From the IMG/VR virus record IMGVR_UViG_3300045988_046609: DNA of 64,000 nucleotides. One strand, given 5' to 3'. Numbering within the stretch: the stretch's first letter is position 1; each line of letters starts with the position of its first letter. Source of the stretch: a virus. Shown in pieces: positions 9,362 through 38,830 of this stretch. Made by a program: the position numbers and the translations under genes. The notes below the pieces were generated by a model. That model was not told the origin of the DNA. It saw only the letters and a list, made by a program, of their open reading frames with translations, and made no database searches.

Positions 9362-9412
9362 TAGTAATATTAGATTTTCTGGAAATAGTTTTCCTTTCTG
9401 CGGTGAACCATA

Positions 9413-10387: not shown

Positions 10388-10402
10388 ATGATATATTTTT
10401 AG

Positions 10403-10489
10403 TAGGAGCATAGAGATTCGAACTCTATAATAAATAAGAAATATATCTTTTTCTTATTTATACCATATTTCTGAATATCAGAAACTCCT
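10403..10489 (-). ncRNA. tRNA-like element with a 12-bp hairpin in place of the anticodon arm
   Basis: Minus-strand read: AGGAGT(T)...(T)GCTCCT acceptor-like stem. T arm TAGAG-TTCGAAT-CTCTA. Central perfect 12-bp stem ATAAATAAGAAA / TTTCTTATTTAT with an 8-nt loop. No canonical D arm. 87 nt in total. Confidence 0.4.
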
Positions 10490-10493
10490 ATTT

Positions 10494-10558
10494 AAAAACG
10501 TAGGTTGTGCACTATTGTGTGTCACTCATTTTTTCATAGTGCGGTGCACTAACCTACG
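10494..10558 (-). terminator. intrinsic terminator downstream of the SSB-like gene
   Basis: Minus strand: CGTAGGTT...AACCTACG 8-bp outer stem with inner CACTAT/ATAGTG pairing, followed by TTTTT. Confidence 0.6.
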
Positions 10559-10606
10559 TATTCCTAGCTTATGCTCTAGGTAGCTACTGTTATTTTATTT
10601 TCTTCT

Positions 10607-11209
10607 TTAAAAAGGAAGATCACCTGTTGGATCAAAAGATGTTTCCATTAGAGGATTAGTATCCTTAGTTTCTACATCTGCTATTACAGGTTTAGTAAAT
10701 TGGTCTATACTCAATTCTGCAATTTTACTCTTTTCTCCTTCAGGAAGATTCATTGGTTCAATAAAAGTAAACTTACAATAATTAGGCAATGTAGTATATC
10801 CCTTTTTATTATATACTATCTTTACTCTAAGTAAAATATTCTTGTTTGCTGCATTTAGCATCATAGCAACCCAATCAACAAAGTCTTTATAAGAAGAACC
10901 AGCAAATACTAGTGCCTCTTTAGGATAGAAACATTCAAGAATTTGCATAATTCTTTTAACTTGTTTACTACCTCTAGTTTGACATTCCTCATCAGACTCT
11001 CCAGGTTTCTTAGTAGATTCCCATTCTGTATGAGTTAAATCTTGTCCTTCTTTAGTAAATTTTACTTCAAGAAAGATATTTCCGTTAATAGACTTGTCAA
11101 CTTTTGCTCCTACAAGCTGTACGTCTTCATGAATACCTGCTTCTAAGTATTTACTTTTTAAAACGTCTGTAGTCTCTATTTTGTTTGCTAATTCTGTGCT
11201 ATAAATCAT
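10607..11209 (-). CDS. single-stranded-DNA-binding-protein-like
   Basis: 200 aa. The C-terminus ...DPTGDLPF resembles the acidic D-(D/L)-PF tip of SSB tails. The gene lies between the primase and a RecA-like ATPase. The OB fold was not verified. Confidence 0.45.
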   Translation of the reverse strand: MIYSTELANKIETTDVLKSKYLEAGIHEDVQLVGAKVDKSINGNIFLEVKFTKEGQDLTHTEWESTKKPGESDEECQTRGSKQVKRIMQILECFYPKEALVFAGSSYKDFVDWVAMMLNAANKNILLRVKIVYNKKGYTTLPNYCKFTFIEPMNLPEGEKSKIAELSIDQFTKPVIADVETKDTNPLMETSFDPTGDLPF

Positions 11210-11223
11210 AACTTAATCATTTT

Positions 11224-11964
11224 TTATTCAGGTAAATAAATTTTGTCCCAATAAGTAGTAATTACATTATCTGCATCACTTTCTGCTACTACTATATTCT
11301 TTCCTCTTAGATGAGGTGCTCTTGCTTCTCTTACAGAATTATCTCCTCCTTCAAAAGAAATATGAGTTTCATTCTTCTTTCTATATACATAGCCTACTGC
11401 ATCCGCTTCACCACATATAATATTTGCAAGTTTACCTACTAAATCAAGAGACATTTCAGATAATTCTTCTCCTTCTTTATTAATCATCTTATCTTTTAAG
11501 TGACCAATTAAGATTAAATTATCGCATAGTTCTTTAAACATATCTATTACTTTTCTTACAGCTTGTTGTAAATATAAGTAACCAGATCCATTTGGCAGTG
11601 TTCTAACATCAGAACCAGTATAACCTTTCCCCATTGGAGTAGCCTTATACAATTGTACTGCAAAACTCATGCACATTTCTTCTAATCTAGAAGCATTATC
11701 TATAGTAATATACTTATAAGGTTTCTTACCTGTTTGTTTAATTTCTTCTTTAATAGCACTAGCTATATCTCCTAAATCCTTTACGGATCTAGCTTGTACA
11801 GCTAATGCTTCCAAAAACTCTGATCCTCCTTCTAAGTCTATAATTAGATTGTTGTCTAATCTAGATACTAAAGTAGTTTTACCAGCTTTTGGTTTGCCAA
11901 ATAGTATTAAAAATCTAGGATTTTCTACCTTGGCTTTTATCTTTTCTTTTGGTAATACAATCAT
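11224..11964 (-). CDS. RecA-like ATPase (AAA_24 / Sak4-like)
   Basis: Walker A GKPKAGKTT and Walker B-like NLILIGH. Size and context are typical of phage Sak4-type annealing ATPases. Confidence 0.6.
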   Translation of the reverse strand: MIVLPKEKIKAKVENPRFLILFGKPKAGKTTLVSRLDNNLIIDLEGGSEFLEALAVQARSVKDLGDIASAIKEEIKQTGKKPYKYITIDNASRLEEMCMSFAVQLYKATPMGKGYTGSDVRTLPNGSGYLYLQQAVRKVIDMFKELCDNLILIGHLKDKMINKEGEELSEMSLDLVGKLANIICGEADAVGYVYRKKNETHISFEGGDNSVREARAPHLRGKNIVVAESDADNVITTYWDKIYLPE

Positions 11965-11987
11965 AAAGCTTATTTATGTTATATTCC

Positions 11988-12017
11988 TCTGATAAGTTTC
12001 TGATAAGTTTCTGATAT
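11988..12017. repeat. tandem 11-bp repeats TCTGATAAGTT (2.7 copies)
   Basis: The sequence is tctgataagtt tctgataagtt tctgatat. TGATAA cores at 11990, 12001 and 12012, 24-53 nt upstream of the ATG at 11964. Confidence 0.8.
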
Positions 12018-12034
12018 ATGGAATAATTATTTTA

Positions 12035-12550
12035 TTAGAATAAACCACGATTTTTAATCTTAATCGTGATATTGATAATAGTTTTCTTAGTTTTAGGTTT
12101 CAAATGGTTTAATGAACCTGGCATGATTGGAATAATATCGTATCCAATCTGTACGAAATTATCGAAGATCTTAATAGGAGTACCAAATTCGTCTTCAAAG
12201 TCATAATCTTTCTCAAACGGATAGTTTTCTTTAGCAAATATATCAAGAGCATTAATTGCTTTAAAGAATTCTTTCTCAAGATCGAAATTAATAGTATCTT
12301 CGTTCCAACACTTAAACGGGCAGTTAGCACATTCTTTAGGAAGCCAGCTAACTTTATGAGTATTGCTCAACCCAAGAGTAATAATATCTCCTGCAGATGC
12401 ATACTCTACACCATTATTAGAATATGGATAATCAAATTTACTATCTACTGTCAACCAAGGGTAGGCAGTGATTACTCGTTTCAACAAATTATCTTTATAA
12501 ATTTTTGCAGTATCTTCTTTCTTCGGTAATGTAATTGTATATGTTTTCAT
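12035..12550 (-). CDS. hypothetical protein
   Basis: Track ORF 12035-12625 trimmed to the first ATG (MKTYTITLPKK...). The track start is a TTG inside the helicase gene. TAA stop. Confidence 0.6.
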   Translation of the reverse strand: MKTYTITLPKKEDTAKIYKDNLLKRVITAYPWLTVDSKFDYPYSNNGVEYASAGDIITLGLSNTHKVSWLPKECANCPFKCWNEDTINFDLEKEFFKAINALDIFAKENYPFEKDYDFEDEFGTPIKIFDNFVQIGYDIIPIMPGSLNHLKPKTKKTIINITIKIKNRGLF

Positions 12551-12566
12551 AATTTTCAGCCTTTTT

Positions 12567-13553
12567 TTAATTGTTATTACTAAACGAAAATTTCTTTGCT
12601 GGTTCTTCGTCTCGTACTGTTTCAATTAAATTATTGTATTTTAGATCGTTATCAAACTCTAATATTGAACATTCGCCTGCATCTCTGTTTTTTAGTATAT
12701 GCAGATAGACTTTGTTCTTAACTAGTAAACGATTCGGTCCATATTGTTGTATATTGAGTAGTTCTGGTCTATGAATACAAATAACATAATCAGAAGCATG
12801 AAATATTGTATCAGCAGAAGAAATATCGCTACGCATTGGATAATGCATAGAAGGATTGTTAATTCTATCAGGAGCTTCAATGTTTCGGTTCATCTGTGAT
12901 AACTGAATTATAGTAGTATTAGGGTATTTTTTTACCTTAATAAATAGTTTCTGTAAATCCGAAATCACTTGCAAGGCAGAAGCTTGACCTTCAACAAGTA
13001 ATGTATGATCTAATATGATCACAAATCTCTTGCCTTTAGCCTTATTCTCATAGAAGTAATCTATAGTAGAAGCTATATTGTCAACTGTTCCCGGTGTATC
13101 TACATAATATATCGGATATGACTTTATTTGTTGAGTTGTTTCTTCAACATTCTCTAATAATTCATCTGTAAGACTATTATTAGCGCTATATAGCTCAGCA
13201 GTAGTTTGCCTTAACTTACTGCTTATTTTTCTACCTACTTGCCTAGAACTTAGCATCTCAAAAGAGAAGTTAAGTACTATAACATCCTGATCAGAATTGA
13301 GATCTATTAAATCGTTTTCTAACGTATTCACAAATGAAGACTTTCCACTACCAGATATACCTACTATAGTATAAATAGTATTGGGTTCAATTCCTCCCAT
13401 ACATTGAGTATTGAACTTCTTCCACCTTGTCTTAAGAGATTCAATCTCATGATTTTTTCTCTTCTTTATATATTCTACTGTCTCTATAGCTGCAGAAGAT
13501 ATATGACGAAATGTAAGTGTATTAGTAGATATCTGTTCCATAATTATTTTCAA
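12567..13553 (-). CDS. DnaB-like replicative helicase (RecA-fold C-terminal domain type)
   Basis: Walker A GISGSGKSSF, Walker B FVIILDHTLL, and the QLSQMNR region. Confidence 0.7.
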   Translation of the reverse strand: MKIIMEQISTNTLTFRHISSAAIETVEYIKKRKNHEIESLKTRWKKFNTQCMGGIEPNTIYTIVGISGSGKSSFVNTLENDLIDLNSDQDVIVLNFSFEMLSSRQVGRKISSKLRQTTAELYSANNSLTDELLENVEETTQQIKSYPIYYVDTPGTVDNIASTIDYFYENKAKGKRFVIILDHTLLVEGQASALQVISDLQKLFIKVKKYPNTTIIQLSQMNRNIEAPDRINNPSMHYPMRSDISSADTIFHASDYVICIHRPELLNIQQYGPNRLLVKNKVYLHILKNRDAGECSILEFDNDLKYNNLIETVRDEEPAKKFSFSNNN

Positions 13554-14088
13554 TTAATGGTTGTTCTACTTTCATTTGCTCTTCATAGGTTTCCCACTCA
13601 TGTTGAGTGAGCCATTTCCACATAGTTTTCATATAACCTATTTTTCCAGTAAGCATTTTATTCTCTATCTCAAATTTAAGACAGTTGCATATATGCTGAT
13701 GCATAGCTTTACTTTTGCCTACTATACGATTATATTCTTTCCTACATTTGTTTACATTAGCTCTTAAGAACCCTTTAGTTCCGTCAGGTCTTATAACATA
13801 AACTGGAAATAGGTCATAAAATTCATCAAACATAGATTTATCTTCTTTTAGAAGTTCAATTAATTTTGATGTTTTACTTATGACTTGGCTACTATCAGAT
13901 TTTGTGATAGTTATTAAACCTTGATTTTCTAACTCTTGTATTTCTTCTTCATTAACTAGGCTGAGAAGTCTCTGAATGTCTTGATTGATGGTTTGATTAT
14001 CATTCAATACAAGCGTTAGGAATACTAACTGATTAATAGATAAATTTTCAATCCGTTCAAGGATTGAGGTGTCTATTTCTAAAATCAT
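13522..14088 (-). CDS. hypothetical replication-module protein
   Basis: 188-aa ORF between the polymerase and the helicase. No motif recognised. Confidence 0.6.
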   Translation of the reverse strand: MILEIDTSILERIENLSINQLVFLTLVLNDNQTINQDIQRLLSLVNEEEIQELENQGLITITKSDSSQVISKTSKLIELLKEDKSMFDEFYDLFPVYVIRPDGTKGFLRANVNKCRKEYNRIVGKSKAMHQHICNCLKFEIENKMLTGKIGYMKTMWKWLTQHEWETYEEQMKVEQPLIENNYGTDIY

Positions 14089-14146
14089 ATTCTCATATTT
14101 TTTACATGAGCTATGTTTTTTCTGAAATATATTTGATAAGTCTTTG

Positions 14147-16096
14147 TTAATCCCATAGACTCATTTGTAACGGTTTTAATTCACGGATTATTTTATAGGC
14201 TTCCATAATATAGTACCTATAATTAATCTTTCTCTCTTCAATTGGTTTATCATCTAAGTAATTTAATAAAGTAACACCAGACGCAGTAAGCATATTCTGA
14301 TACTGTTTTTCTGTAGGACATGGAATACTTATATCAAAACGATTAGTATCTTTTTCCTTCCATTTCCATAGATAAGCACCATTAGTACTTGCATAGAAAC
14401 GATTAGTCCTTTGTTGTTCTTTATTATTATACTCAATATGCCATTGTTTACCAGTTTTTTCAGCCATTAGAAAATCTCTAATATCTTGGCAACCTTTTAT
14501 AGTTTCTTCTACTGGTACTCCGTTCTTAAAAAAGTTTATTACTGCTTTCGGTATGATCTTCGGAGTTAAACCTTTCCCTAATTTCACAGTAGTAATAAAC
14601 ATACCCTTTTCTTTTACTTTATCATCTTCAGTAATAGCAAAGTAGTCATTTATAGCACATTGATACATAGCCTTAAAACGTTCCTCTTCTAAAGTAAGTT
14701 TAGTAAGTTGTTCCCATTCTCTACATACTTTGTTTACACTAACATATACAGATTTTTTAAGTAATACAAACAAACCGTCTGTATTAGCTTGGATGATTCG
14801 GCATCCTAATTGGGTTAGTTTTTCAGCTAGCATTAACAATAGAAGCTGACCGTTAATTCGGATTTTCATAACAGCTTCTGGACTATAACAGAAATTATGT
14901 GGATTCTGTAAGTTACCTGATAATCCATTGAGAGCAAGCTTTAAGGTTTCGTTTTTAACCTTATTGCCATTGTGTTTAGCTTCGATACGCTCATCTTTAA
15001 TTTGCTTATATACTTCTAAGAACTCAGGTCCTAAATGTTTAGGATAGAACCCATATTCTATTAGCATACTTGGATATAGTGATGCAACATCTATATCAAT
15101 GAGCATTTCATCTTCTTTTGGTATAACTATTTCAGGATCATTTACTGAATGAATTCCTCCAACTCCTACAGAATATCTTAGTCCTTCAAATATGAATTTA
15201 TTTTCATATCCTTTTCTTCCTGGAGATACTATTTGACTTTTCATATCATCTAGTACTCCTTGAAGTATCGGACTGTCATACTTAATAAATGGTAGTATTA
15301 CCTTATTTAATGGTATTACATCCATTGGAGATCTTAAATCTTTAATATCATACCAGGTTTGACCTGTTTTTTCAAGATATTTCTGTGTTAAAATCTTCAT
15401 TCCAATGTTTACTCCGTCTTTACTAAGTACTCTTACTCCGTATTCATCTTCAATAGCTAACCTTAAATCTACATCTTTTTTACATCTATTGAGTAATTCC
15501 TCAGTAGAATTAACATCATTAATATTATATTCAATCATTGAATCTATCTGATTTTCAGGTAAATCTGCCTGCCAATCTGCAACAAATTCTTGTACATTTT
15601 TGTATTGCATTGTTACTTGAATCTCTTTCAAACCTACTCTTAACTTATTACTATAAAGCATAGTAAGAATATCAAACGAATCAAAACAGATCATATATTT
15701 CCACTTACTCCATGCTCTAATATCATCTTCGCTAGAAGTAGTAATTACTTTACTTAAATTAAATATAGATCTACATATATCTCTATATCCTTTGTATTTC
15801 ATTATAATATAATAATCTATTATGTAATTTATAATAGGATTATCGTAATGAAGATTATTATAACCACAAAATAATTTATCAGTATTTAACTGAATTTTCG
15901 TAGTATATAAATCTCCGAAAGTATAATCTGTATCAACGGTATGAAAGAAATTAACTAATTCATCTAATTGATTTCTTCTGCAAGATATTTCAAATTTATG
16001 CAACTCACCTGTTTCTGTATTTTTTACAGTACAATGGAAAACATTGGGGAATACCTCAATATCATATACATAAACAATCTTATCTCGTATAATCAT
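14147..16096 (-). CDS. family B DNA polymerase
   Basis: Exo I VYDIEVF, Exo II NNLHYDNPII and Exo III YNINDVNST. Polymerase motif A DVASLYPS, motif B KLALNGLSG and motif C ANTDGLF. Confidence 0.9.
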   Translation of the reverse strand: MIIRDKIVYVYDIEVFPNVFHCTVKNTETGELHKFEISCRRNQLDELVNFFHTVDTDYTFGDLYTTKIQLNTDKLFCGYNNLHYDNPIINYIIDYYIIMKYKGYRDICRSIFNLSKVITTSSEDDIRAWSKWKYMICFDSFDILTMLYSNKLRVGLKEIQVTMQYKNVQEFVADWQADLPENQIDSMIEYNINDVNSTEELLNRCKKDVDLRLAIEDEYGVRVLSKDGVNIGMKILTQKYLEKTGQTWYDIKDLRSPMDVIPLNKVILPFIKYDSPILQGVLDDMKSQIVSPGRKGYENKFIFEGLRYSVGVGGIHSVNDPEIVIPKEDEMLIDIDVASLYPSMLIEYGFYPKHLGPEFLEVYKQIKDERIEAKHNGNKVKNETLKLALNGLSGNLQNPHNFCYSPEAVMKIRINGQLLLLMLAEKLTQLGCRIIQANTDGLFVLLKKSVYVSVNKVCREWEQLTKLTLEEERFKAMYQCAINDYFAITEDDKVKEKGMFITTVKLGKGLTPKIIPKAVINFFKNGVPVEETIKGCQDIRDFLMAEKTGKQWHIEYNNKEQQRTNRFYASTNGAYLWKWKEKDTNRFDISIPCPTEKQYQNMLTASGVTLLNYLDDKPIEERKINYRYYIMEAYKIIRELKPLQMSLWD

Positions 16097-16116
16097 AATA
16101 TAATAATGTTAGTTTG

Positions 16117-16234
16117 TTCCCTATTTCGGATTTGAACCGACGACCTCCCCTAACATATACGAATATATAGTAATACGAATATTACATCAATATATACGAA
16201 TTACAGGATGCTCTACCACTGAGCTACTAGGGAT
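16117..16234 (-). ncRNA. tRNA-like gene with a roughly 51-nt AT-rich insertion at the anticodon position
   Basis: Minus strand: acceptor TCCCTA(G)/(A)TAGGGA. Textbook D arm GCTC-AGTGGTA-GAGC. Variable loop AGGTC. T arm (G)TCGG-TTCAAAT-CCGA(A). Between a weak TCCT/AGGG stem lies a 51-nt insert carrying three copies of ATTCGTAT. No assignable anticodon. Confidence 0.5.
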
Positions 16235-16242
16235 CCATGAAA

Positions 16243-16854
16243 TTATGCTGCAAGCAATTTTGACTTAGTATAATATATAATATTATTATCTTTACTATCC
16301 TGGATTCTAATACCAGTTACATCATCATTGTCTGCATATTTTTTAGCTATTTTCATAGCTTTATTTTTAGCGTCTTCACGAGAAGATGCTTTAAAATAGT
16401 CTGTCAAAAAATCATAATCTCTTTGTGGATTATCTTCTGACTTTTTCTGTACTACATACTGAAATGTACGTATATCAGCTTTTTCTTTTATTGATAATTC
16501 AGCAGCAGTATATCCTTTCTGAATCTTTTTATTAACAAATTCAGAAATATGTTTGCGCTCTTTAAGCAATTGTTCTCGTAATCCTTGCTTAATTTTAATG
16601 CGCTCCTTTATCTGTTCTTTAGTTAACGTAACAGGTTTTGGTTTTTCAAATAATTTGTTCTTTACAATACGTGTAAATTTACGTTTTTCCTTACTAGTAT
16701 ACTTGTTAGTAGGATCATATCCTGCTTCTTTAAGTATTTGTTTAATGCGTTCTTTCTTAGAAAGCTTAGCATTTTTATTCTCATTACGAGATTCTGTTGC
16801 TATTTTTGTTGTATATTCTGCTTGACGCTTATCTATATAAATAACTTTTTCCAT
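16243..16854 (-). CDS. hypothetical lysine-rich protein
   Basis: 203-aa ORF with ATG start and TAA stop. K/E-rich. Confidence 0.65.
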   Translation of the reverse strand: MEKVIYIDKRQAEYTTKIATESRNENKNAKLSKKERIKQILKEAGYDPTNKYTSKEKRKFTRIVKNKLFEKPKPVTLTKEQIKERIKIKQGLREQLLKERKHISEFVNKKIQKGYTAAELSIKEKADIRTFQYVVQKKSEDNPQRDYDFLTDYFKASSREDAKNKAMKIAKKYADNDDVTGIRIQDSKDNNIIYYTKSKLLAA

Positions 16855-16868
16855 AATCTTGATAATTT

Positions 16869-17072
16869 TTATTCTTTATTACTTGTTAAGTAAAATCCTT
16901 GTATTTTCTTAGGAGACTTAACGTTACTATTCTCTTTGTACTTTATAGTTACATAATTATAACCTAATATAATATGTTCTATATCTGTACAAGTATTAAG
17001 AGCATCGTTTACACGATGCTCAAAATGCTTATTAGTTTCAAATAAACCTTTTCTAATATATTTAGCTTTCAT
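16869..17072 (-). CDS. hypothetical protein
   Basis: 67-aa ORF, tightly packed against its neighbours (ATGA-type overlap). Confidence 0.55.
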   Translation of the reverse strand: MKAKYIRKGLFETNKHFEHRVNDALNTCTDIEHIILGYNYVTIKYKENSNVKSPKKIQGFYLTSNKE

Positions 17073-17581
17073 TATGCAACTAAGGCTATAGGAGCAGATT
17101 CAATATTTAGTTCTGCACTATTATTGAAATCTTCAAGTTCCTTATTAAGTTTATTAATTTCTAATTGTAATTTATTTTTTAAGTTTGTTATATATGCAGA
17201 AGTTAGTTCTTCTGTAATATTCAATCCTTTCTTACTCTTAGCTCGTTTGATCTTAGGATCGATAGTACGTACTTTAGTAAGATGAAATAGTTGTTCAGAT
17301 TTCTCACTTAGTGAGAAAATAGTAAAATAGTTATTACTAGTAGGAAGCTCTGAAAACTTTTTATATCCCATATTAATACATTGCAGATATAGCTTCATTA
17401 GAATGCGTTCTTCTGCCATTTCTTCAATTTTTGTTAAAAGCACCTTCAAATCAAAATTGCGAGTTGCTTCTTTAGATATAACATTTTCATTTTTAATAAT
17501 ATTCCAGTACTTAGTAATTTCTTTACTTAACTCGTCACGACGAGTTTTTGCATATTTAGATGTAATTGATTTCATATTCAA
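17072..17581 (-). CDS. hypothetical protein (coiled-coil-like)
   Basis: 169-aa ORF with ATG start and TAA stop. Confidence 0.65.
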   Translation of the reverse strand: MNMKSITSKYAKTRRDELSKEITKYWNIIKNENVISKEATRNFDLKVLLTKIEEMAEERILMKLYLQCINMGYKKFSELPTSNNYFTIFSLSEKSEQLFHLTKVRTIDPKIKRAKSKKGLNITEELTSAYITNLKNKLQLEINKLNKELEDFNNSAELNIESAPIALVA

Positions 17582-17630
17582 GTGATTTGTTTTTTAAGTT
17601 AATACTTGACCGAAATCGTTTACTAGTTTG

Positions 17631-17697
17631 TCATGCATAACAGATTCAAACTGCTGTCTCTATTAAATAGCGCTCTAATCAACTAAGCTAATGCATG
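17631..17697 (-). ncRNA. tRNA-like element with a truncated (11-nt) anticodon arm
   Basis: Minus strand: perfect 7-bp acceptor CATGCAT/ATGCATG. D arm GCTT-AGTTGATTA-GAGC. T arm AGCAG-TTTGAAT-CTGTT. The anticodon arm is reduced to CTATTTAATAG. 67 nt in total. Confidence 0.5.
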
Positions 17698-17782
17698 AGA
17701 ATTAAAAACTACCCAATTCAGCAGTTTTTATAAAAAAAGTACCCAATTCAGTACTTAGAAATGTTTAATCATTAGGTCCAAT

Positions 17783-18361
17783 TCAACCTTTTCTGATTTT
17801 AACAATTTTGTTATTTAGCTTTCCGATGATCGGTAATATCCGTCCACCACCGAGATCTACACCTACGCCAATCTCAACATCACCGTCAAGACTGTACTCG
17901 TGTTTATACTGTTCACGTTGTTCTTCTGCATATTTTTTTGCATTTTCCTGATTGATATATTTAGAATGTAGTTCCCCGTCTGAACAATTCCTCATACTAT
18001 CAAACAAAATATCTACTACACAGTCGAAGTCGCGTTCTTTTACAGCTTTATCAAGAATACTTTTAGTAATTCCGTCAAAAGCAACATCATTTCTGGATCC
18101 ATTAGATCCAGTAATTGCGTCTGCTATACGAATTGATGCATCTATAATACTTACCGATTCATAAGAATTACAGCATCTTTGCCACCAAATTGGTCCACGT
18201 CCATAATAAAAATAGACGGTTCCATTCTCTTTAATTTGAACCTTTTTAGGAGTTTCAATTACAGCTCCGTTCCGAATCTGAACTTTGCTGAGAATTGTTG
18301 GCTCTGAGCAAATAAGTATTCGCAGAAGCTCTACTCTTATAGGAGAAATTCTGCTATTCAT
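17783..18361 (-). CDS. hypothetical protein
   Basis: 192-aa ORF with TGA stop. Visibly more GC-rich than its neighbours. Confidence 0.65.
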   Translation of the reverse strand: MNSRISPIRVELLRILICSEPTILSKVQIRNGAVIETPKKVQIKENGTVYFYYGRGPIWWQRCCNSYESVSIIDASIRIADAITGSNGSRNDVAFDGITKSILDKAVKERDFDCVVDILFDSMRNCSDGELHSKYINQENAKKYAEEQREQYKHEYSLDGDVEIGVGVDLGGGRILPIIGKLNNKIVKIRKG

Positions 18362-18368
18362 AACTTAC

Positions 18369-19016
18369 TTATCCCTGGGCTTGTTCGATAGTTACGTTTA
18401 CTTCTACCTGATCTTCGTTAGTGATCCCACACTGCCGTAAGTACTCTACTTGAGCACGATCCTGTTGGTCCATAATGTTCCGGACAGTTTCTGCAAGTTG
18501 CATGTTTTTACGGGCTTGTTCCTCATAGAAATTCAGAATAGATGAGTTATGCATCTTTAAGCATGTATTCAACTGCGGAAGTTCAGAAGGACCAAAGAAA
18601 ATAGGTCTTGTAGGATTTGTTGGATCGTTCGGCTTGGTTAATGTTGCAATACAGGCCATTACACTTTCCCGGGTTGCTTTCTGGAAATTCGGTTCAGCAA
18701 GATCAAATACCAGTGATGGATCCTGAGACTTCGGATTCAGAATTACCTTTGGATGACCGTCAAAGTCCTTTTCACAAAGTTCAATACCTGTAATATCAAT
18801 AGGCTTGACTATGAAAATCCGGACATCCTTCCGTAATGTGTTCTTGTCATTCTGAACATCTTCTTTCCATTTCAGATCTGGGTTGTGTGATACAATTGTA
18901 TAGATCTGGCTACTAAAGTATTCTCCATACTTTTTACAAACTTGCCGATATCGAGCCATAATAGAAGCTAACTCCGTGTTAGGAGTAACCATTTGTATTT
19001 TACTATTTTGTTCCAT
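18369..19016 (-). CDS. hypothetical protein
   Basis: 215-aa ORF with ATG start and TAA stop. More GC-rich than the block average. Confidence 0.65.
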   Translation of the reverse strand: MEQNSKIQMVTPNTELASIMARYRQVCKKYGEYFSSQIYTIVSHNPDLKWKEDVQNDKNTLRKDVRIFIVKPIDITGIELCEKDFDGHPKVILNPKSQDPSLVFDLAEPNFQKATRESVMACIATLTKPNDPTNPTRPIFFGPSELPQLNTCLKMHNSSILNFYEEQARKNMQLAETVRNIMDQQDRAQVEYLRQCGITNEDQVEVNVTIEQAQG

Positions 19017-21144
19017 AAAAAATGTTCCCTTCTTGATTCCGTACTTGATATACCAATACGGATCATTTTTAGTTTTTAAGTTAATAATAAGTTAATGCTC
19101 TCCACTGTTCGATTATTTTATAGTATTACAATAATGGTAATAGTGAATTCAATCACATAATCTACTAAGTATATTTGATAATAAATGTTAATTTATTCGA
19201 AAATATCTTTTGATAAATTCTCTGATAAATTTTCTGATAATATGCTTTAACGTCCCGTTTCGACGGTTAAGATTCAATTTTTTCGATGCTTAACGCACCC
19301 CTCACCGTTATTTTATATCGCTATTAGTTGCAATATAAAAGACACAGATCATCGACTAAGTAAGTCTACCTGGTATTTCCGTATTATCGAAATTCATAGA
19401 ATTACGGTCGTTTATCTAACGTTACCAACTCATGAGCTCATTGCTTAAAGCATGACCCACTCATACCATGCATAGGATTTGTTGTTTATAACTGCGCGAA
19501 CACGAGGATTTCCACCTCTCATCGTCTCCTTGTTGCTTGATTGTTATTACGATCAAGTTAAATACTTCGTCCTTTAATCTACCGAGACAGGGTGATAGAC
19601 GACAGGTTATTAACGAATCAGCGTTCTCTTTACGTATATATTTGCGATATATACTTTATGAGTTTCTAATGTCAGCGATAACGGTTGGCAGTCTGGGGGT
19701 GACTTATACTCCATACGGTCTGTCTTACAAATGACAATTTGCTACTTCTGTACTATCATTGGACTTCCCCAATTTCTATGTGACTCATAGCCTTCCTACA
19801 CTATGCAGTCTGATTAATAATATTAATTTATTCCCTTAGAACAGATTTAACTAGGCCGGTTCTATTCGGCATTAACTTTCAGATGCAGTAAAGTAACATC
19901 ATCTGTTCACAATCTTACCTCTCTGGTTCCAGGGTTCTAAGCTGGAGCAGCTTGGCTCTTACTTATTAATTTATTGTTTTTGACTACTACTAATATCTCC
20001 TACTCTGGAATGAGTGTGATAATCTAGTAATACACCTTTTACATATCTTGAAAGGTATAAGCTCTGCTGTTTTTAGAAGGAGTTCCAAAGCTTCTCCTTA
20101 GTATTATTTTATGTCATAATCGTACTTGCTAAAGGTACGTGACAACTAGAATCAGGGTTATTGCGCCCTCAAACCGCTTAGACATCTTTGTCTATTCATT
20201 CCTCATTCAATTATACTCACACGAACGAATAAGCACGTGAGTCACTTTAGACTTGAAAGACGGTATCAATCTCATATACCTCATCCCTTATACGTAAATT
20301 CTTTTGCGGCACGCTAGTTACGGTAGCGCACAGGATTGGCTCCTGCTCCCTGGTAATCAGTCGGATCATGGATCTGCACGTAGCTTCACTCCCCGGATCA
20401 TTGCATGTCCAGCCTTCATATCTTTACTTTGTATAAGTATGTACCATAACACGGTTATCCTTACATTAGTATCAGTAATTACTCCCTTTATATTATGAAC
20501 CAGTTATCATAAAAACACTAGAGTTAGCCTATTTTTCCAATCAGGACGTATAATTACGCTTTTGTATAAAGCGAGGTTGGAGCCCGCTTGTTGCGTTAGT
20601 CAGCCATAATATTATTCAATAATCCTTTTCCAAGGGATTATTCAAGAGCCCTTTGCTCTTGTTTCAGCATCGTGTTCATATTCCTTCTTGAGTCACATCT
20701 TGATTGACGCATACGAATATAGAGATTTCGTTCTCTTTTTGAGGATTAAGGACTTTATCTTTTACAGTTTTATTTGTTTATTGCTGCGATTCAGTCTCCT
20801 CTTGTTTGAATTAATTTGTAACTAGGGTATCTTCTTGTTGCTCCTATATTACGGGTTCTTCACTCTTAATATCACCAGACGGTTCTCATATTAACAGCGC
20901 AGGCTATTCACCCTCTCCTGCTTTCTTATACCTTTTTCACCAGCATAAGTTATTATCCTACCTTTTGAGTATCTTACGGTGTTAGCCGCTACGAAGCATC
21001 TCATAACTACTTCTTACATATTCTCGGATTCTGTCTTTTTCGGGCTATGTATAAATGAATACAAACTCCCTGACGCAGTAGTACTTAAAAACTTCCTTCT
21101 GTGACTGCCGGAGTGATTTACGCTATAGTTTTACTCCTCTCGAA
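19017..21144. other. 2.1-kb ORF-free, GC-enriched segment; candidate large structured non-coding RNA region
   Basis: No minus-strand ORF of 60 aa or more, and only two short plus-strand ORFs. Hand-counted GC was 42-48 percent in two 60-nt samples, against 32-35 percent in two coding samples. Many local hairpins. Confidence 0.4.
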
Positions 21145-21609
21145 CTATGATATAATTATAGTATTTATATAGCGGTTATTATCATTAACTTTTTCCGCTG
21201 AGGGTTTATCTTCCCCTACACTAAGTTGCTCCGGTTTTATACAGAAAATTTCTCCTGAAGATAAGTTAATATTTGCAACTATTTTCTTACCTCTGCATAT
21301 ATCTACTATGCCGTTTTTTATATCATTACTACTGATATAATCAACTGGATCCATTTGTCCTGGGTCAAAACCGTCCAAGCGAACACAAATCTCACTTACA
21401 GACGAACGTAAGTACTGCTCTACGAATAAGATATTCTCGCAACTAGCTTTAGCTTGTACCTGAATTAAGTTAGTACTTTGTCCTTGCACAATAAAGTAGT
21501 TTGATTGGTCTATTACGAAATCTAAATTTCGTCTAGCTTCTTTAATGTTACGTATGATACGCGATAGACGTGCCATACTATTTAACATAATGTAATTTTT
21601 CTTATTCAT
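21145..21609 (-). CDS. hypothetical protein (ends in TAG)
   Basis: Track ORF trimmed to the ATG at 21609. The stop is TAG at 21145-21147, with an in-frame TAA 8 codons further on. Confidence 0.6.
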   Translation of the reverse strand: MNKKNYIMLNSMARLSRIIRNIKEARRNLDFVIDQSNYFIVQGQSTNLIQVQAKASCENILFVEQYLRSSVSEICVRLDGFDPGQMDPVDYISSNDIKNGIVDICRGKKIVANINLSSGEIFCIKPEQLSVGEDKPSAEKVNDNNRYINTIIIS

Positions 21610-21611
21610 CA

Positions 21612-22001
21612 CTATTGTTTTTTGGTAAAAGGAGAAAGTGGTTTTACATCCTCTGGTAGGTTAGCTATACTACTTACCTTTGGAAATCCTGTATTTACTT
21701 CTTTTACTTTGGTCCTGTATTTAACTATAGGTTTTACTTCTCCTGTAGTTGTTACATTTACAATTGCGTCCGTTGTTCCATTTACGGATACTTCGTGGGT
21801 ATTAATATCTACTGATACATTAATCGTATCTATACCCGCGGACTTTTTCTCTTCTGTTTTAGAATGTGTCATAGACATTAATTCTAAATATGAAGGAATA
21901 ACAGGCTGAGCCTGTACTACTTCAGTAGTATTTACTAAATTCCAGCCAATATAAATACTCGCAAAGAATATTAGTACTACTGATACGATTCTACTATTCA
22001 T
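21612..22001 (-). CDS. hypothetical secreted or membrane-anchored protein (ends in TAG-TGA)
   Basis: 129 aa with an N-terminal hydrophobic segment. The stop is TAG, followed immediately by TGA. Confidence 0.6.
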   Translation of the reverse strand: MNSRIVSVVLIFFASIYIGWNLVNTTEVVQAQPVIPSYLELMSMTHSKTEEKKSAGIDTINVSVDINTHEVSVNGTTDAIVNVTTTGEVKPIVKYRTKVKEVNTGFPKVSSIANLPEDVKPLSPFTKKQ

Positions 22002-22055
22002 TTTGATGATGATTTAGTGAATAACTTTCTAAAGGTAATAATTTGTTTCCAAATT

Positions 22056-23594
22056 TTAAGGATCTGGCTTAGCTTTTTTTTCAACCTTATCCTCTTTTGA
22101 AGGAAACTCTCCTGTAGTAGGAGTAATTATGCCTTCTTCGTATTCTGCAAGACGATCCATAGGATCACGATACAGATTGATAATCTGGCCTATCTTCATA
22201 CGAACTTCATCTTTAGATGGATGCTGTCCTTCTGGAAAATAGTTCTGACTTACTAGATCAAACTGCTTTTTTGCAAGTTTGAGTGCTTCTTGTTGTTCAC
22301 TGTAGTCTTTATCTCCCGGTTTAGATGTTACACCGGCAGAAATAGTATTGAATAAATCATCAATATACTTTCTACCAACATTTCCAATTACTGCTTGAAG
22401 TGCTTTATCGTCAGTTGCCTTCAGATTTTCATCACTCTTAAGTTTGTAACGGAAGTTTTCTTGCAACAGTACTTTTAAAGTACTTGCAATCTGTTCTTCA
22501 CTCCAGCCACATGGTGCCATATGCTTATGTAGTAAGGAATGAGCGGAGACCGGAGAACCCTGTGCAGCAGTATATAAATATACTGTACGTCCAAGACCAT
22601 TCATTAGTGGAACACTGTTGATAATATGGAAGATCTCTTCAATCCACTCTGCTACAGTGCGATTGTCAAGTTCAATCTTCTTTTCTGCATTATCTTCTTT
22701 GTTGATACAGTATACACGATACCATTCAACTGTGTTAACAATATTAGTTGCAATATTGCGATCTTTACGCATAAGATGATCTAGGACAGCAGCTAATTCT
22801 TCAAGAGAATTGATGTCCTTAGGATCAAGCGAAATAGGTTTTGTAGGAGCCTCAGCTTTGTTTTCCTTCAACTCATCAGGAATTTTAGTATCTGGAGAAT
22901 TGAAATCAATTGCTAATTGACCTTCATTCTCTTTTCCCGGAAGTGCTTTAGGTTCAGCTAAAGTAATGCCAAGAGAATCTGCAATATCCTGCAATCGGAA
23001 GATCTGTTCAGCAGGTAGTTTACACACAAACTCACCGGCAGCAGATCGTTCTGCAAATTCATTCTTGATATCAATCATTCCAAGCAACCATACTGCGTCG
23101 ATAGATCGAGCTGTATTTGCATATGATTCTGGACTTTGGTTCTTATACTCTTCATTATTAATGAATCGTTGATAACCAACATACGCAAGCATTGCTTTCG
23201 CATCAGCAGAAGAGCGATTAGATCCAATAGGGATTCCATTTCCTATTGCAGGGATTTTACCAACTTTTTCTTCCACTTCTGGAATTATTGTAGGAATCTT
23301 TGGACTCTTCTTTCCTTTATCAGCCGTTTGTTGGGTAGGCTTCTTTTCTTCCTTTTTCTCCTCCTTCTTAGTTTCTTTCTTAGAAACTTCCTGACTCTTT
23401 TCTTGTTTAGAGTTTGCTGCAGGTTTTGGAGCAGATTTCTTCTCCTGGGTTGCTGAAGTATTATCAGCTACTTGCTGAGTATCCTCAGCTTTACTGTTCT
23501 CTGATTTAGCATCAGCTGATTTTTTGTCAGCTAGACTTACTTTTGTTGCAACTTTTGCTGCATTTCCTCCTTTATTATTCTTTGGTTTTGACAT
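22056..23594 (-). CDS. hypothetical protein with K/E/S-rich disordered N-terminus
   Basis: 512-aa ORF. Roughly the first 110 aa are low-complexity lysine/glutamate-rich sequence. Confidence 0.7.
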   Translation of the reverse strand: MSKPKNNKGGNAAKVATKVSLADKKSADAKSENSKAEDTQQVADNTSATQEKKSAPKPAANSKQEKSQEVSKKETKKEEKKEEKKPTQQTADKGKKSPKIPTIIPEVEEKVGKIPAIGNGIPIGSNRSSADAKAMLAYVGYQRFINNEEYKNQSPESYANTARSIDAVWLLGMIDIKNEFAERSAAGEFVCKLPAEQIFRLQDIADSLGITLAEPKALPGKENEGQLAIDFNSPDTKIPDELKENKAEAPTKPISLDPKDINSLEELAAVLDHLMRKDRNIATNIVNTVEWYRVYCINKEDNAEKKIELDNRTVAEWIEEIFHIINSVPLMNGLGRTVYLYTAAQGSPVSAHSLLHKHMAPCGWSEEQIASTLKVLLQENFRYKLKSDENLKATDDKALQAVIGNVGRKYIDDLFNTISAGVTSKPGDKDYSEQQEALKLAKKQFDLVSQNYFPEGQHPSKDEVRMKIGQIINLYRDPMDRLAEYEEGIITPTTGEFPSKEDKVEKKAKPDP

Positions 23595-23653
23595 TTTGAT
23601 AATGCTTTAAATTGTTAGTAAATAAGTTAATTTTAATAGTGTTTTTAGAGAGG

Positions 23654-24028
23654 TCAACTATCATCCTCTATGTCAGGTGAATCTCGTCCCTTAGTGATAT
23701 GATTGCTAACTAATATGTCTGACATAAACGGTTCAGTAAATAATGCAATGTAACTCACAGCTCCTGGACGGCTAGTAGAACCTTCTGTCACTGTTACTAC
23801 GCACTGTGTGCATGCATCATTTCCGTTGTCAACAATATCAATTAGCTGAGTAATAGAAGCTGTTATTCCTGTCTTTTTAGACTGTTTTACAGCTTCTTTA
23901 CTCAACATACCTACTAATAGACCAGCCATAATGGCAGACATAAATATCCACCACATTTTTGTACTACGAAAAATTCGAGTACAAACAAATGCTACTATAA
24001 GTAACACAATAATCCATGCTGCTGTCAT
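23654..24028 (-). CDS. membrane protein (two N-terminal TM helices) downstream of the sigma factor
   Basis: 124 aa. Hydrophobic segments AAWIIVLLIVAFVC and WWIFMSAIMAGLLVGML. Confidence 0.6.
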   Translation of the reverse strand: MTAAWIIVLLIVAFVCTRIFRSTKMWWIFMSAIMAGLLVGMLSKEAVKQSKKTGITASITQLIDIVDNGNDACTQCVVTVTEGSTSRPGAVSYIALFTEPFMSDILVSNHITKGRDSPDIEDDS

Positions 24029-24039
24029 AATTAGTAAAT

Positions 24040-24606
24040 TTAGTTGTTGTTTAACAATTGTTTTAATTTATCTCTAGCTTTATTAAGCTGAGATTTTACT
24101 TGAGACTCAGAAAGTCCCAATTGTTCAGAGATTTCTTTGTAAGACAAACCTTGAACAGTTCGTAGTTCAATTATATTTCTGTACTTAAAACGAAGTCGCG
24201 ACAAGGCACTATCTAGAGCATCACTTGTCTCTGCAAAGACATAATCGTCTTCTGGAGAGTAACTGGCCTGGTTACTCAATTGCAAAGAGTTGGCATCGTC
24301 GTCAATCCAATAGTTCGCTTTTTCTTTTTTCATACGTCTGATATAATCAATACTACTATTTATAGCTATAGTTTTTAACCACATTTCAAATGAAATATTG
24401 TTAACATAACTATCTAGCTTACTAAAGGCTTTAATAAATGTAACAGATAATAAATCATCTGCTACATCTCTATTCTTTACTATATTGTATATAGTAAGAT
24501 ATATAGTTCTTTCAAATCTATTATAAAGCCTTGTGAAGGCAGATTGTTTGCCTTCTCTCGCCTGTTTGATCAGTTCAAAAATCTGTTGTTTTTCTAAATC
24601 TGTCAT
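24040..24606 (-). CDS. ECF-type sigma-70 family RNA polymerase sigma factor
   Basis: Region 2-like block ...RDVADDLLSVTFIKAFSKL...WLKTIAINSSIDYIRR. Region 4 helix-turn-helix LSYKEISEQLGLSESQVKSQLNKARDKL. Confidence 0.8.
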   Translation of the reverse strand: MTDLEKQQIFELIKQAREGKQSAFTRLYNRFERTIYLTIYNIVKNRDVADDLLSVTFIKAFSKLDSYVNNISFEMWLKTIAINSSIDYIRRMKKEKANYWIDDDANSLQLSNQASYSPEDDYVFAETSDALDSALSRLRFKYRNIIELRTVQGLSYKEISEQLGLSESQVKSQLNKARDKLKQLLNNN

Positions 24607-24690
24607 AATTACGGGCTCTAGTAGATATAAGTTTGATAAAAACTTGTATCTATTTCTTAGTGAATATAGGGCTAATCAAAGCCCTATATC

Positions 24691-25074
24691 CTAGAATGGT
24701 ACACCTACAATCCAGCGGCAGTACCAATTTATATAGCTCTGATAGAATTGCTTATAAGAATCCCATATACACTCCATGAATTCTCTTTTTAAATCAGGAG
24801 ATAGAGTATCAGGTGATATCTTATTAATCATTCCACAAACTATTCTTATTCTCACGTCTAAAGTAGATTTTTTTTCACAGTTTATTTTACATAATACATT
24901 AGTATCAAACCAATATATTATATGATTAATTGGTTTAGTATCTCTGAAAGTTTTGTTCTTAACTTCTTTATCTCCAAGGTTAAGAAAAATTCTCCAGCTT
25001 TCTCTCCAATTAAACTTTTTGTACTGTATTCCCCAAGGAGTATATGCTCGATTAGTTAAACTATATGCGACCAT
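24691..25074 (-). CDS. hypothetical protein (ends in TAG)
   Basis: 127-aa ORF. TAG stop at 24691-24693, with an in-frame TGA 4 codons later. Confidence 0.6.
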   Translation of the reverse strand: MVAYSLTNRAYTPWGIQYKKFNWRESWRIFLNLGDKEVKNKTFRDTKPINHIIYWFDTNVLCKINCEKKSTLDVRIRIVCGMINKISPDTLSPDLKREFMECIWDSYKQFYQSYINWYCRWIVGVPF

Positions 25075-25519
25075 GTTTCCTTAGTTTATTGATAATCTGT
25101 AACACAATAACGTGAGCTTGTGGTATAGACCATTCTGTTTTACTTACGATATACATTTTAGTTGCCCATATTCCTTTACCAGGAGTACGAGCATCTTCAA
25201 TGTATCTTTGTGTGAAATCCTCAAATTGTTCATCGGTTATATCTGGTATTTTAACTCCACGAGTTGATTTACGACGAGAGGGTAGATCACAAACCTCTGA
25301 GTATTCATATTCAAAGAATATGAATTTATCAGGTTCTGTTAATACTGCTTGAATCTCATAAGATTCTTCAGTAACCACATGAAATAATCCTTTTTGAATA
25401 AGGTCATTCATTACTAACGCATTTGGTATACGTAGCATTGGAGCTTCACCAATAACATTTGCGAGAAGTTCAAAATCTTCTCCTATGATACGGTAAATTC
25501 CAGGATGATTTAGTTTCAT
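25061..25519 (-). CDS. hypothetical protein (ends in TAG)
   Basis: 152-aa ORF. TAG stop at 25061-25063, with an in-frame TAA 2 codons later. Confidence 0.6.
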   Translation of the reverse strand: MKLNHPGIYRIIGEDFELLANVIGEAPMLRIPNALVMNDLIQKGLFHVVTEESYEIQAVLTEPDKFIFFEYEYSEVCDLPSRRKSTRGVKIPDITDEQFEDFTQRYIEDARTPGKGIWATKMYIVSKTEWSIPQAHVIVLQIINKLRKHGRI

Positions 25520-25701
25520 AGTTTATTCAATTCTTTTCTAAAGTTATCTACTACACCTGCTACTTCATATTGTTTAAGTTCAGGATATAATTTCATAATC
25601 TTGGCAATTGCCTCGATGTCTGAGCGGCAAGAGTTTAATAATTTGATAAACTCTGTTTTTTCATGTTTGGATTCAAACCAAGCAAAATATCTTATCTGCA
25701 T
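25516..25701 (-). CDS. hypothetical protein
   Basis: 61-aa ORF that overlaps its neighbours by 4-10 nt. Confidence 0.5.
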   Translation of the reverse strand: MQIRYFAWFESKHEKTEFIKLLNSCRSDIEAIAKIMKLYPELKQYEVAGVVDNFRKELNKL

Positions 25702-25970
25702 GCTTCTATGTATTCTTTGATTTTATCATCTAATACCTTCCATTTATTTAAATCAATATCTGTTGCATCTACTAAATAGTATATTGCACAAGTTGATCTA
25801 AATACACCACGAATGTAGTTTATTCCCTCTTTATAATGATATTTATTCTTATAAATTCTGGGAACATTTGCATGTAGACGAGTTATTAACTCTGTCTTCA
25901 TCTTCAGTTCAGTTGCAGCTTTCTCCCAAGATTCTGGTAGATTAGCTCTAATAAAGTTCATTAATCCCAT
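25692..25970 (-). CDS. hypothetical protein
   Basis: 92-aa ORF with ATG start and TAA stop. Confidence 0.55.
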   Translation of the reverse strand: MGLMNFIRANLPESWEKAATELKMKTELITRLHANVPRIYKNKYHYKEGINYIRGVFRSTCAIYYLVDATDIDLNKWKVLDDKIKEYIEACR

Positions 25971-26006
25971 TTCAAATTAATTTATTGATTAAACTTAATT
26001 TATTTG

Positions 26007-26065
26007 TAGCATTAGAGGGATTTGAACCCTCTACAGCTCTTACGTCTGATCTAGCCTGATATGCT
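26007..26065 (-). ncRNA. tRNA-like minihelix (acceptor plus T arm) with an irregular body
   Basis: Minus strand: AGCAT/ATGCT 5-bp stem stacked on the T arm TAGAGGG-TTCAAAT-CCCTCTA (7 bp), giving 12 stacked bp as in tRNA. The intervening 27 nt form the hairpin CAG(G)CT...AGCTG. No D arm or anticodon arm. Confidence 0.35.
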
Positions 26066-38822: not shown

Positions 38823-38830
38823 CTTAATAT

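Follow-up and report, generated by a model that had tools for sequence, protein, structure and literature searches.

The replication module of the virus recorded as IMGVR_UViG_3300045988_046609 in IMG/VR contains four tRNA-like elements, all in intergenic positions on the minus strand of the 64,000-nucleotide (nt) stretch analysed here (the window). We conclude that these elements are tRNA-derived top-half modules, each built from a T loop and an acceptor/T stack of about 12 bp, with the elbow usually completed by a D arm or a GG linker. Their structure, conservation, covariation, position and origin were read directly from the sequences. With moderate confidence, we interpret the elements as processing signals marking cuts by the host enzymes RNase P and RNase Z in long transcripts, where cleavage itself is what we infer. 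CrAss-like phages, to which this virus belongs, rank among the most abundant viruses of the human gut, and little is understood of how they express their genes. The four elements, numbered as loci 1 to 4 and named after the gene slot they occupy, are the following (PolB, family B DNA polymerase; MFE, minimum free energy).

10403..10490, minus strand: tRNA-like element 1, primase slot (direct reading, MFE fold, covariation)
16117..16233, minus strand: tRNA-like element 2, PolB slot (RF00005, 33.8 bits; covariation)
17631..17697, minus strand: tRNA-like element 3, gp23 slot (direct reading, covariation, 38.9 bits with the PolB-slot model)
26007..26065, minus strand: tRNA-like element 4 (direct reading, mismatch-free stack scan, covariation)

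Bases 9000-18000 of the window are 99.3% identical to the crAss-like phage cr56_1 (NC_055890.1; Crassvirales, Suoliviridae, Loutivirinae, Buchavirus faecalis), whose RefSeq record carries no annotation at any of the four loci. All four lie in the minus-strand replication module, and together with one 2.1-kb region lacking an open reading frame (ORF) they make up all long intergenic gaps of this gene block. The genes downstream encode primase, PolB and small hypothetical proteins, and every element lies on the sense strand of its downstream gene. These genes had been called early in the initial annotation; that label is not established, and we treat them as members of the replication module. 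The elements were compared with RefSeq relatives and with two sets of IMG/VR loci retrieved via PolB (L001 denotes NC_055890, L003 cr4_1, L005 cr52_1, L006 cr53_1 and L052 cr50_1).

Direct reading of the sequence bore out the proposed combination of an acceptor-like stem with a canonical T arm at all four minus-strand loci. Element 1 has the acceptor TAGGAGT/GCTCCTA (10490-10484 / 10409-10403) and a T arm (10428-10410) with the 6-bp stem ATAGAG/CTCTAT and the loop TTCGAAT; a 6-bp hairpin replaces the D arm and a 12-bp hairpin the anticodon arm. Its MFE fold is the same four-way junction (-24.9 kcal/mol, z = -4.5). Element 2 combines the acceptor TCCCTAG/ATAGGGA, a textbook D arm and the T loop TTCAAAT with an AT-rich hairpin of ~51 nt in place of the anticodon loop, the tip of which reads GUAAUA-UUCG-UAUUAC. 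Acceptor (CATGCAT/ATGCATG), D arm and T arm (loop TTTGAAT) are perfect in element 3, which has G18 and A19 in the D loop, U56 in the T loop, and an anticodon arm cut down to the 11-nt stub CTAT-TTA-ATAG (4 bp/3 nt). In element 4, a 5-bp acceptor (AGCAT/ATGCT) and a 7-bp T stem (TAGAGGG/CCCTCTA) form a 12-bp stack with the loop TTCAAAT, and the linker of 27 nt contains GG. The further claims of the initial annotation on architecture also held: a normal anticodon arm is missing throughout, its place being taken at loci 1 to 4 by hairpins of 12 bp and 51 nt, a 4-bp/3-nt stub and a 27-nt linker, in that order; acceptor and T stems stack to about 12 bp (7 + 6 at locus 1, 5 + 7 at locus 4); and the two textbook D arms are those of loci 2 and 3.

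What the elements and their homologues keep is the acceptor/T stack and the tRNA elbow, along with the D arm in those that have one. The invariant core comprises U8-A9-G10 and the T-loop nucleotides G53, U54, U55 and A58, and the tertiary pair 19:56 covaries (GA with UUUGA, GG with UUCGA). Forms without a D arm keep a short GG-containing linker that could supply G18-G19 to the elbow. The smallest forms in relatives, 41-47 nt long, consist of the acceptor, a GG linker of 10-11 nt (AAUGGUUAAU and AUAGGAAAUAU are minimal linkers) and the T arm, and one form is a minihelix. Equally constant is the trailer after the discriminator, C-(A/T)-A-A in full, which is the same in all slots and cassette types and in true tRNAs. 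C74 is present in 31/31 distinct PolB forms and 21/21 distinct gp23 forms; it is followed by A or U at position 75 and A at position 76, that is, C-W-A (W, A or U) and not C-C-A. The bona fide tRNA-Met of the phage has no encoded CCA either, so endonucleolytic 3' ends followed by CCA addition are to be expected in this system.

The helices are maintained by compensatory change. For the PolB slot, an alignment of 19 distinct forms covering 12 acceptor and T pairs (two tRNA-Met rows were left out owing to misalignment by MAFFT) had 97.8% of its cells paired, and 11/12 pairs were changed on both sides. The covariation score was 0.858 compared with 0.27 in shuffles, and at most 49% of the cells paired when the register was slid. 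Among 15 distinct gp23-slot sequences, acceptor, D and T helices were 100% paired, with both sides changed in 12/18 pairs. The window-type cassette of the primase slot, present in 11 relatives, showed 96.7% paired cells over its four helices and 8 pairs changed on both sides; its 12-bp hairpin carries compensatory changes, and its single-stranded linker CAUGG is invariant. At locus 4, AGCAT/ATGCT exchanges with GGTAT/ATACC, and TAGAGGG/CCCTCTA with TGAAGGG/CCCTTCA. Covariation, proposed beforehand as a check, is therefore extensive in acceptor and T helices (97-98% paired, compensatory changes in most pairs).

One alternative is a DNA-level signal, such as a promoter, replication or recombination element. 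No promoter could be assigned in these intergenic regions, and the exchange of cassettes described below suggests recombination at the conserved GGTTCGAATCC core, both of which speak for it. However, G-U pairs and the strand-specific tRNA features (U8, G18G19, T-loop consensus, A58) are kept, and every element is on the sense strand of its downstream gene. Since G-U pairs and tRNA features make sense only in an RNA made from the coding strand, we consider a DNA-level role extremely improbable.

Stacks of this kind are rare by chance. Mismatch-free 12-bp acceptor-plus-T stacks with a TT[CT][GA]ANN loop occur five times in the window (two real tRNAs and loci 1, 3, and 4), whereas 200 dinucleotide shuffles gave a mean of 0.445 (sd 0.63) and reached three hits once; the possibility that shuffled AT-rich sequence yields them at the same rate is thus dismissed. 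With one mismatch allowed, the scan found 18 against ~12 expected and had no power. ARAGORN called a tRNA at 0/4 loci in the window. The Rfam tRNA threshold (29 bits) was reached by locus 2 alone of the four (33.8 bits, with a 56-nt insertion in the alignment), and loci 1, 3, and 4 had no Rfam match even at E<=10; standard tools therefore miss the element class, which says nothing against it. A covariance model built from PolB-slot elements alone ranked, as its top seven matches in the window, locus 2, locus 3, tRNA-Met, an element at 38716-38831 that is treated below, locus 4, a false hit and locus 1. Loci 1-4 form one structural class. The false hit (40217-40296, plus strand) was rejected as a chance match with poor pairing inside a TAG-recoded terminase coding region. 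Group I introns were likewise rejected as an explanation for the inserts: lengths of 27-56 nt fall well below that of such an intron, and no intron was detected at the loci with Rfam.

Over 100 relatives, drawn from five subfamilies (Loutivirinae, Uncouvirinae, Bearivirinae, Boorivirinae, and Oafivirinae), carry a tRNA or a tRNA-like cassette in these four intergenic slots, which answers the question of conservation. Occupancy was complete in the loci examined (121/121, 109/109, and 115/115). In one Intestiviridae phage, there is no element at PolB, which abuts the preceding gene. As far as tested, the slots are typical of Suoliviridae. Upstream of PolB, a T arm and an acceptor 3' strand lie shortly before the ATG in 121/121 loci with a PolB start, and the distance from discriminator to ATG is 15-22 nt in 31 parsed distinct forms. 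The occupants themselves vary widely even at PolB identities of at least 92%. At least five types were distinguished, among them the window form with its AT-rich insert, forms of 58-59 nt without any anticodon arm that still score 44-45 bits with RF00005, a form with an unrelated 70-nt insert, and forms with an "anticodon" loop of 3-4 nt or of 12 nt; in more distant genera, the slot holds a genuine tRNA-Met(CAU) or tRNA-Arg(UCU). In the primase slot, the acceptor/T stack was found in all groups of the 109 loci scanned but one cassette type, which the scanner missed because its T stem has a bulged base. The linkers of this slot span 10 to 104 nt. ARAGORN found no canonical tRNA there across the 109 loci (59 distinct upstream sequences), nor did we find one in the representatives of five subfamilies examined, in which the top half was always there.

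These observations bear on the idea that the elements are functionless tRNA pseudogenes at various stages of erosion in intergenic "landing pads". True tRNAs (tRNA-Arg, Leu, Met, and Lys) do occupy the same slots in relatives, and for locus 3 the descent can be traced. An intact tRNA-Arg(UCU) is present in the gp23 slot of cr4_1 and of many IMG/VR genomes. Its D loop has the same unusual G18-A19 and its T loop the same UUUGA as locus 3, and the two share the leader ACUAGUAGACG downstream; locus 3 is therefore a truncated descendant of this clearly homologous tRNA. How an anticodon loop is destroyed can be seen at L119-L122, where the PolB-slot tRNA-Met (about 7472-7995 in L119, L121, and L122) is split in its anticodon loop by ~440 nt. 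The insertion encodes an 89-aa PD-(D/E)XK endonuclease (Pfam PF11645, 27.4 bits), and an Rfam search of the L119 insertion gave no intron match; it represents one route of anticodon-loop loss.

Against neutral decay, compensatory substitutions persist after the anticodon arm has gone. In the truncated gp23-slot lineage, the T stem appears as AGCAG/CTGTT, GGCAG/CTGTC, GGAGG/CCTTC, and GGGAG/CTCTC, the acceptor has passed from CATGCAT/ATGCATG to CATGTAT/ATACATG, and the stub changes in sequence among relatives with its hairpin retained. Such changes after truncation indicate selection on structure, not decay. In addition, the primase slot keeps its top half without a canonical tRNA in all 59 distinct upstream sequences, the T-loop and elbow nucleotides are invariant, and not one of the PolB loci is empty. 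Pure decay is contradicted by covariation and slot occupancy, and as an explanation we regard it as very improbable. Of the initial suggestion of decayed tRNA genes, the part concerning origin stands (locus 3 from tRNA-Arg); as a full explanation it fails, as compensatory evolution goes on after truncation. The related argument that loss of the anticodon arm alone is not chance decay is strengthened by slot conservation, heavy covariation and the 41-47-nt forms that keep the tRNA top half.

Two genomes have RefSeq or ARAGORN tRNA calls whose "anticodon" loop measures 3 nt or 6 nt, namely the "tRNA-His" of cr53_1 (L006:17655-17726) and the "tRNA-Ser" of cr50_1 (L052:16523-16602), the latter without the long variable arm. 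Both are probably mis-annotated, non-decoding tRNA-like elements, which matters for the annotation of these genomes.

The features that flank elements 1 and 3 are listed here.

10388..10402, minus strand: leader CUAAAAAUAUAUCAU, 15 nt from element 1 to the primase ATG (10387), with conserved trailer C-W-A-A
10494..10559, minus strand: terminator-like hairpin ACGTAGGTT...AACCTACGT followed by a U-run (-23.1 kcal/mol, z -4.75)
17703..17785, minus strand: three hairpins in tandem that share the conserved loop UGAAUUGGG, immediately upstream of element 3; U-runs follow two of them

The start codons had been placed 15-49 nt downstream of the elements, and this holds for loci 1, 2, and 4. For locus 3, a conserved ATG at 17575 is preferred to the TTG at 17581, so the gene most likely starts at 17575 with a leader of 55 nt. 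Element 2 begins 9 nt past the stop codon (16243-16245) of the preceding ORF, and 20 nt separate its end from the PolB ATG (16096). These flanks are too short for a promoter or a terminator, so the element must lie inside a polycistronic RNA unless a promoter is located within the upstream gene. The hairpin at 10494-10559, whose long loop exceeds the limit of the terminator scan, stops ~3 nt short of element 1 and is kept in relatives with an interior of variable size. In cr4_1 (L003:12980-13298) and cr53_1 (L006:10934-11242), this hairpin encloses a G+C-rich insert of ~150 nt that looks structured and may be an independent structured RNA. The tandem hairpins at 17703-17785 are also kept upstream of the gp23-slot element in relatives, including before the intact tRNA-Arg of cr4_1, and may be terminators, promoter elements or protein-binding sites. 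As a module-wide promoter, the hairpin-loop motif TGAATKGGG was rejected: it is confined to the region upstream of locus 3 and not enriched in the window.

Locus 4 borders a non-coding RNA that must be released, a two-piece transfer-messenger RNA (tmRNA).

26117..26257, minus strand: coding piece of a two-piece (permuted) tmRNA (5' GGGGUAU; homologue calls)
26358..27284, minus strand: tmRNA acceptor piece, split in the T loop (Rfam and intron-less homologues)

The initial annotation had placed element 4 before the ORF at 25970. The ORF is there, with gp12 starting at this ATG, yet the element is not associated with the ORF alone, as it sits between gp12 and the tmRNA coding piece directly upstream. 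The tag ORF of the tmRNA (26197-26153) encodes GNTSYVMDYTRLVA and a stop, and G3 of the coding piece pairs with U70 of the acceptor piece. The latter consists of exon 1 (~27284-27243) and exon 2 (~26376-26358, CCCTC ATACTCC A), with approximate borders; between them lies a group I intron (Rfam 26999-27254) with an antisense endonuclease ORF (26446-27051, plus strand). Intron-less homologues are found in cr52_1 (L005:26966-27346) and cr53_1 (L006:28626-28861), and the tmRNA homologues were called by ARAGORN in cr52_1 and by Rfam tmRNA_permuted in cr53_1 (50.3 bits). In cr53_1, this tRNA-like cassette again comes after the tmRNA piece, but a different gene is the next ORF. The cassette stays with the tmRNA, which indicates that the locus 4 element goes with the RNA boundary.

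We rejected the idea that locus 4 supplies the tRNA-like 3' half of the tmRNA, because the element has its own covarying 5' strand and the acceptor strand of the tmRNA is elsewhere. G3·U70 is present in 0/4 loci, position 3:70 being G-C, C-G, U-A, and C-G in loci 1-4, and the genuine G3·U70 tmRNA adjoining locus 4 uses a different T arm and acceptor strand. The cassette itself is not the same in the two near-identical genomes: in the window it is of the AGCAT type, accompanied by ~50 additional nt (26007-26116), and NC_055890 has a type with a 9-10-nt anticodon loop. With ~99% identity in the replication genes, this difference points to a very recent cassette exchange. Farther upstream of the tmRNA, RAGATH-20, RAGATH-9, and Hatchet ribozymes are located at 27510-27607, 28256-28412, and 30078-30203 (minus strand); RNA-processing elements are densely packed in this region.

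Bacterial RNase P and RNase Z recognise the elbow formed by T loop and D loop, the acceptor/T stack and the surroundings of the discriminator; the anticodon arm is not needed. The phage elements retain just these parts and have lost the arm that the enzymes can do without. The substrates of bacterial RNase P have been reviewed and include polycistronic mRNAs, pre-tmRNA, and phage RNAs (PMC11143913). In the model we favour, the elements would be transcribed within replication-module transcripts. RNase P would cut at the 5' end of an element and thereby free the upstream RNA. At loci 1 and 3, this would be an mRNA with a protective 3' hairpin; locus 2 would yield the gp25 mRNA, and locus 4 the tmRNA coding piece. 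Cleavage by RNase Z after the discriminator would leave a short, unstructured, A/U-rich leader with a 5' monophosphate that starts with C-(A/U)-A-A and extends over 15-55 nt to the start codon. Truncation, an expanded loop or an insertion in the anticodon arm would have deprived the slot tRNAs of decoding, with their role in processing kept. This plausible reading fits the anatomy of the elements best: element 2 fills the gap between the stop codon and PolB, element 4 parts the tmRNA piece from the ORF, and the trailer is invariant.

Several observations weigh against processing signals. The terminator-like hairpins with U-runs at loci 1 and 3 lie only 3-9 nt upstream of the elements, and if they terminate efficiently, little read-through RNA reaches these loci. 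A sigma-70 promoter scan of the window gave 88 sites compared with 93.5 in shuffles, none of them placeable, although this consensus is unsuited to Bacteroidales. The acceptor/T junction of locus 2 contains two G·A mismatches. Some middle domains show conservation of their own, such as the UUCG-tipped hairpin and the 12-nt loop CAAAAUGUAAGU, and may thus have a further function. Phages that are ~99% identical elsewhere have exchanged cassettes, a turnover faster than a plain processing signal seems to need. Finally, the literature searched contained no RNA-seq study of a Suoliviridae phage. Bacteroides-type -7/-33 motifs upstream of the elements gave no consistent match by eye. A metagenome scan at the predicted RNase Z site comprised DNA assemblies only, and the site was internal in every contig.

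The elements could instead remain on the mRNA as a 5'-untranslated structure, with RNase P trimming the 5' side or transcription starting just upstream, and act as a stabiliser or as an enhancer or regulator of translation. A base-paired monophosphate 5' end would be hidden from 5'-end-dependent RNases. Consistent with such a role, each slot keeps a constant distance to the ATG, the terminator-like hairpins upstream could mean that the elements form the very 5' ends of new transcripts, and C74 is followed by A or U instead of C, so that no CCA is encoded. The leaders downstream of the elements have no Shine-Dalgarno sequence. On the other hand, the true tRNAs in the slots need 3' release and have the same trailer. 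The RNA preceding locus 4 requires a defined 3' end, and spacings from 15 to 55 nt across the slots are unexpected for a ribosome-docking structure. We therefore judge attachment to the mRNA improbable.

A fifth element of the same kind lies on the plus strand.

38720..38822, plus strand: fifth anticodon-defective tRNA-like element with a 32-nt insert (RF00005, 35.1 bits)

ARAGORN makes no call for this element, which lies 9 nt upstream of a suppressor tRNA(CUA) (38830-38905, plus strand) that appears to have an encoded ACCA end. Both are conserved in cr60_1, where the element shows a compensatory T-stem change. The match to NC_055890 ends at 38717, and hence the cassette is absent from that place in the near-identical reference.

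The fifth element stands before a tRNA and not before an ORF, which would suit yet another explanation. Here, the element would be released as a stable small RNA in which the top half serves as the chassis, much like engineered tRNA scaffolds, and the variable middle as the payload, be it a regulator or a decoy or sponge for a host defence or a tRNA-binding protein, and placement would reflect convenient transcription. The middle domain is indeed hypervariable, and near-identical phages differ by whole-cassette swaps in the PolB slot and at locus 4. Structure and conservation are seen in some inserts, including the 12-bp hairpin, the 12-nt loop and the UUCG-capped hairpin, which has a compensatory change in L076. 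However, many occupants are free of any payload (10-nt linkers, 58-nt forms, the minihelix) and others are ordinary tRNAs; the feature shared by all is therefore the top half and its position. This explanation also leaves the slot-specific spacing to the start codon and the invariant trailer unaccounted for, and no target was found for any insert. We consider it unlikely. A more specific version, in which abundant, nuclease-resistant, RNase P/Z-processed small RNAs would display swapped middles that act as decoys or inhibitors of factors of the host or of rival phages, such as tRNA-binding defence nucleases or RNA-guided systems, appears doubtful to us. If true, hypervariability and cassette swapping would reflect an arms race, with the punctuation of mRNAs as a by-product.

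Two further features of the window deserve mention. An in-frame TAG at ~40159 (plus strand) lies within the terminase large-subunit region; this codon and the suppressor tRNA(CUA) are in keeping with recoding of TAG in late genes. No frame of the 2.1-kb gap at 19017-21144 (minus strand) contains an ORF, whether or not TAG or TGA is read through, and Rfam gave no match there. The gap is comparatively G+C-rich by eye, coincides with an annotation gap in all relatives and may be a large non-coding RNA.

Full-text literature on crAss-like phages, Suoliviridae, tRNA-like elements and tmRNA contained no description of these elements that we could find, and no Rfam family holds them. They thus define an RNA class outside Rfam that can be searched for in other phages. 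Several known systems resemble them in part. In mitochondria, tRNAs punctuate transcripts, and bacteria have tRNA-mRNA co-transcripts such as the E. coli tufB operon and secG-leuU. As in the phage slots, a tRNA shape acts there as an endonucleolytic separator in polycistronic RNA, and some of the relatives hold a functional tRNA at the respective position. Those separators are working tRNAs, whereas most phage elements have no anticodon arm, and with its loss, separation or another structural role is all that remains for them. Small (~58-nt) non-decoding tRNA-like RNAs are represented by the mascRNA/MENβ ends of MALAT1/NEAT1 and the TMERs of MHV68. Their cleavage by RNase P or RNase Z sets the end of an adjacent functional RNA, and MHV68 provides a viral precedent. 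A description of mascRNA is found in 10.64898/2026.01.19.700226. Unlike the phage elements, these RNAs are eukaryotic and nuclear, mascRNA has a small anticodon-like stem, and the TMERs double as Pol III promoters.

Canonical tRNAs (RF00005) and their pseudogenes have the acceptor, the T arm, the elbow, often the D arm and the evolutionary origin in common with the phage elements. The phage elements differ from the former by the missing 5-bp/7-nt anticodon arm and from the latter by helices under compensatory selection. The tRNA-like domains of tmRNA and of bacterial and phage Y RNAs (YrlA; PMC4201824) likewise possess acceptor, T arm and D loop only, are RNase P substrates and occur in phages. 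The tmRNA domain is aminoacylated and has G3·U70, in contrast to the four loci. YrlA has the opposite topology, with a module closed at the "acceptor" end that opens into the Ro-binding stem (PMC4201824).

The closest counterparts are the t-elements of plant mitochondria, which direct cleavage by RNase P and RNase Z at mRNA ends (Forner et al. 2007, PMC1920247). Like the phage elements, t-elements have a non-canonical cloverleaf with a conserved T arm (GGTTCRANYCC in t-elements) beside mRNA 5' or 3' ends, and canonical tRNAs do the same job at other genes (PMC1920247). The phage elements indeed combine a tRNA-like fold and a conserved T arm with a location at the boundary of an mRNA or another RNA. 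For t-elements, cleavage by the two enzymes has been proposed and partly demonstrated with mapped ends (PMC1920247); in the phage, the ends are deduced from sequence. Moreover, t-elements belong to an organelle genome with a protein-only RNase P and are few and scattered, without rapid cassette turnover, whereas the phage elements occupy a syntenic set of slots conserved across a virus family. If our reading is true, these phages organise their transcripts with the tRNA-maturation enzymes of the host, as a bacterial-virus counterpart of mitochondrial tRNA punctuation. The relatives, which range from full tRNAs to 41-nt forms, offer a series of substrates for probing the in vivo requirements of bacterial RNase P and RNase Z. 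Thus, tRNA-like processing signals as such are known already; what is new is their occurrence in a bacterial virus, in family-wide syntenic slots and with fast cassette turnover, and the natural series that leads from complete tRNAs down to top halves of 41 nt.

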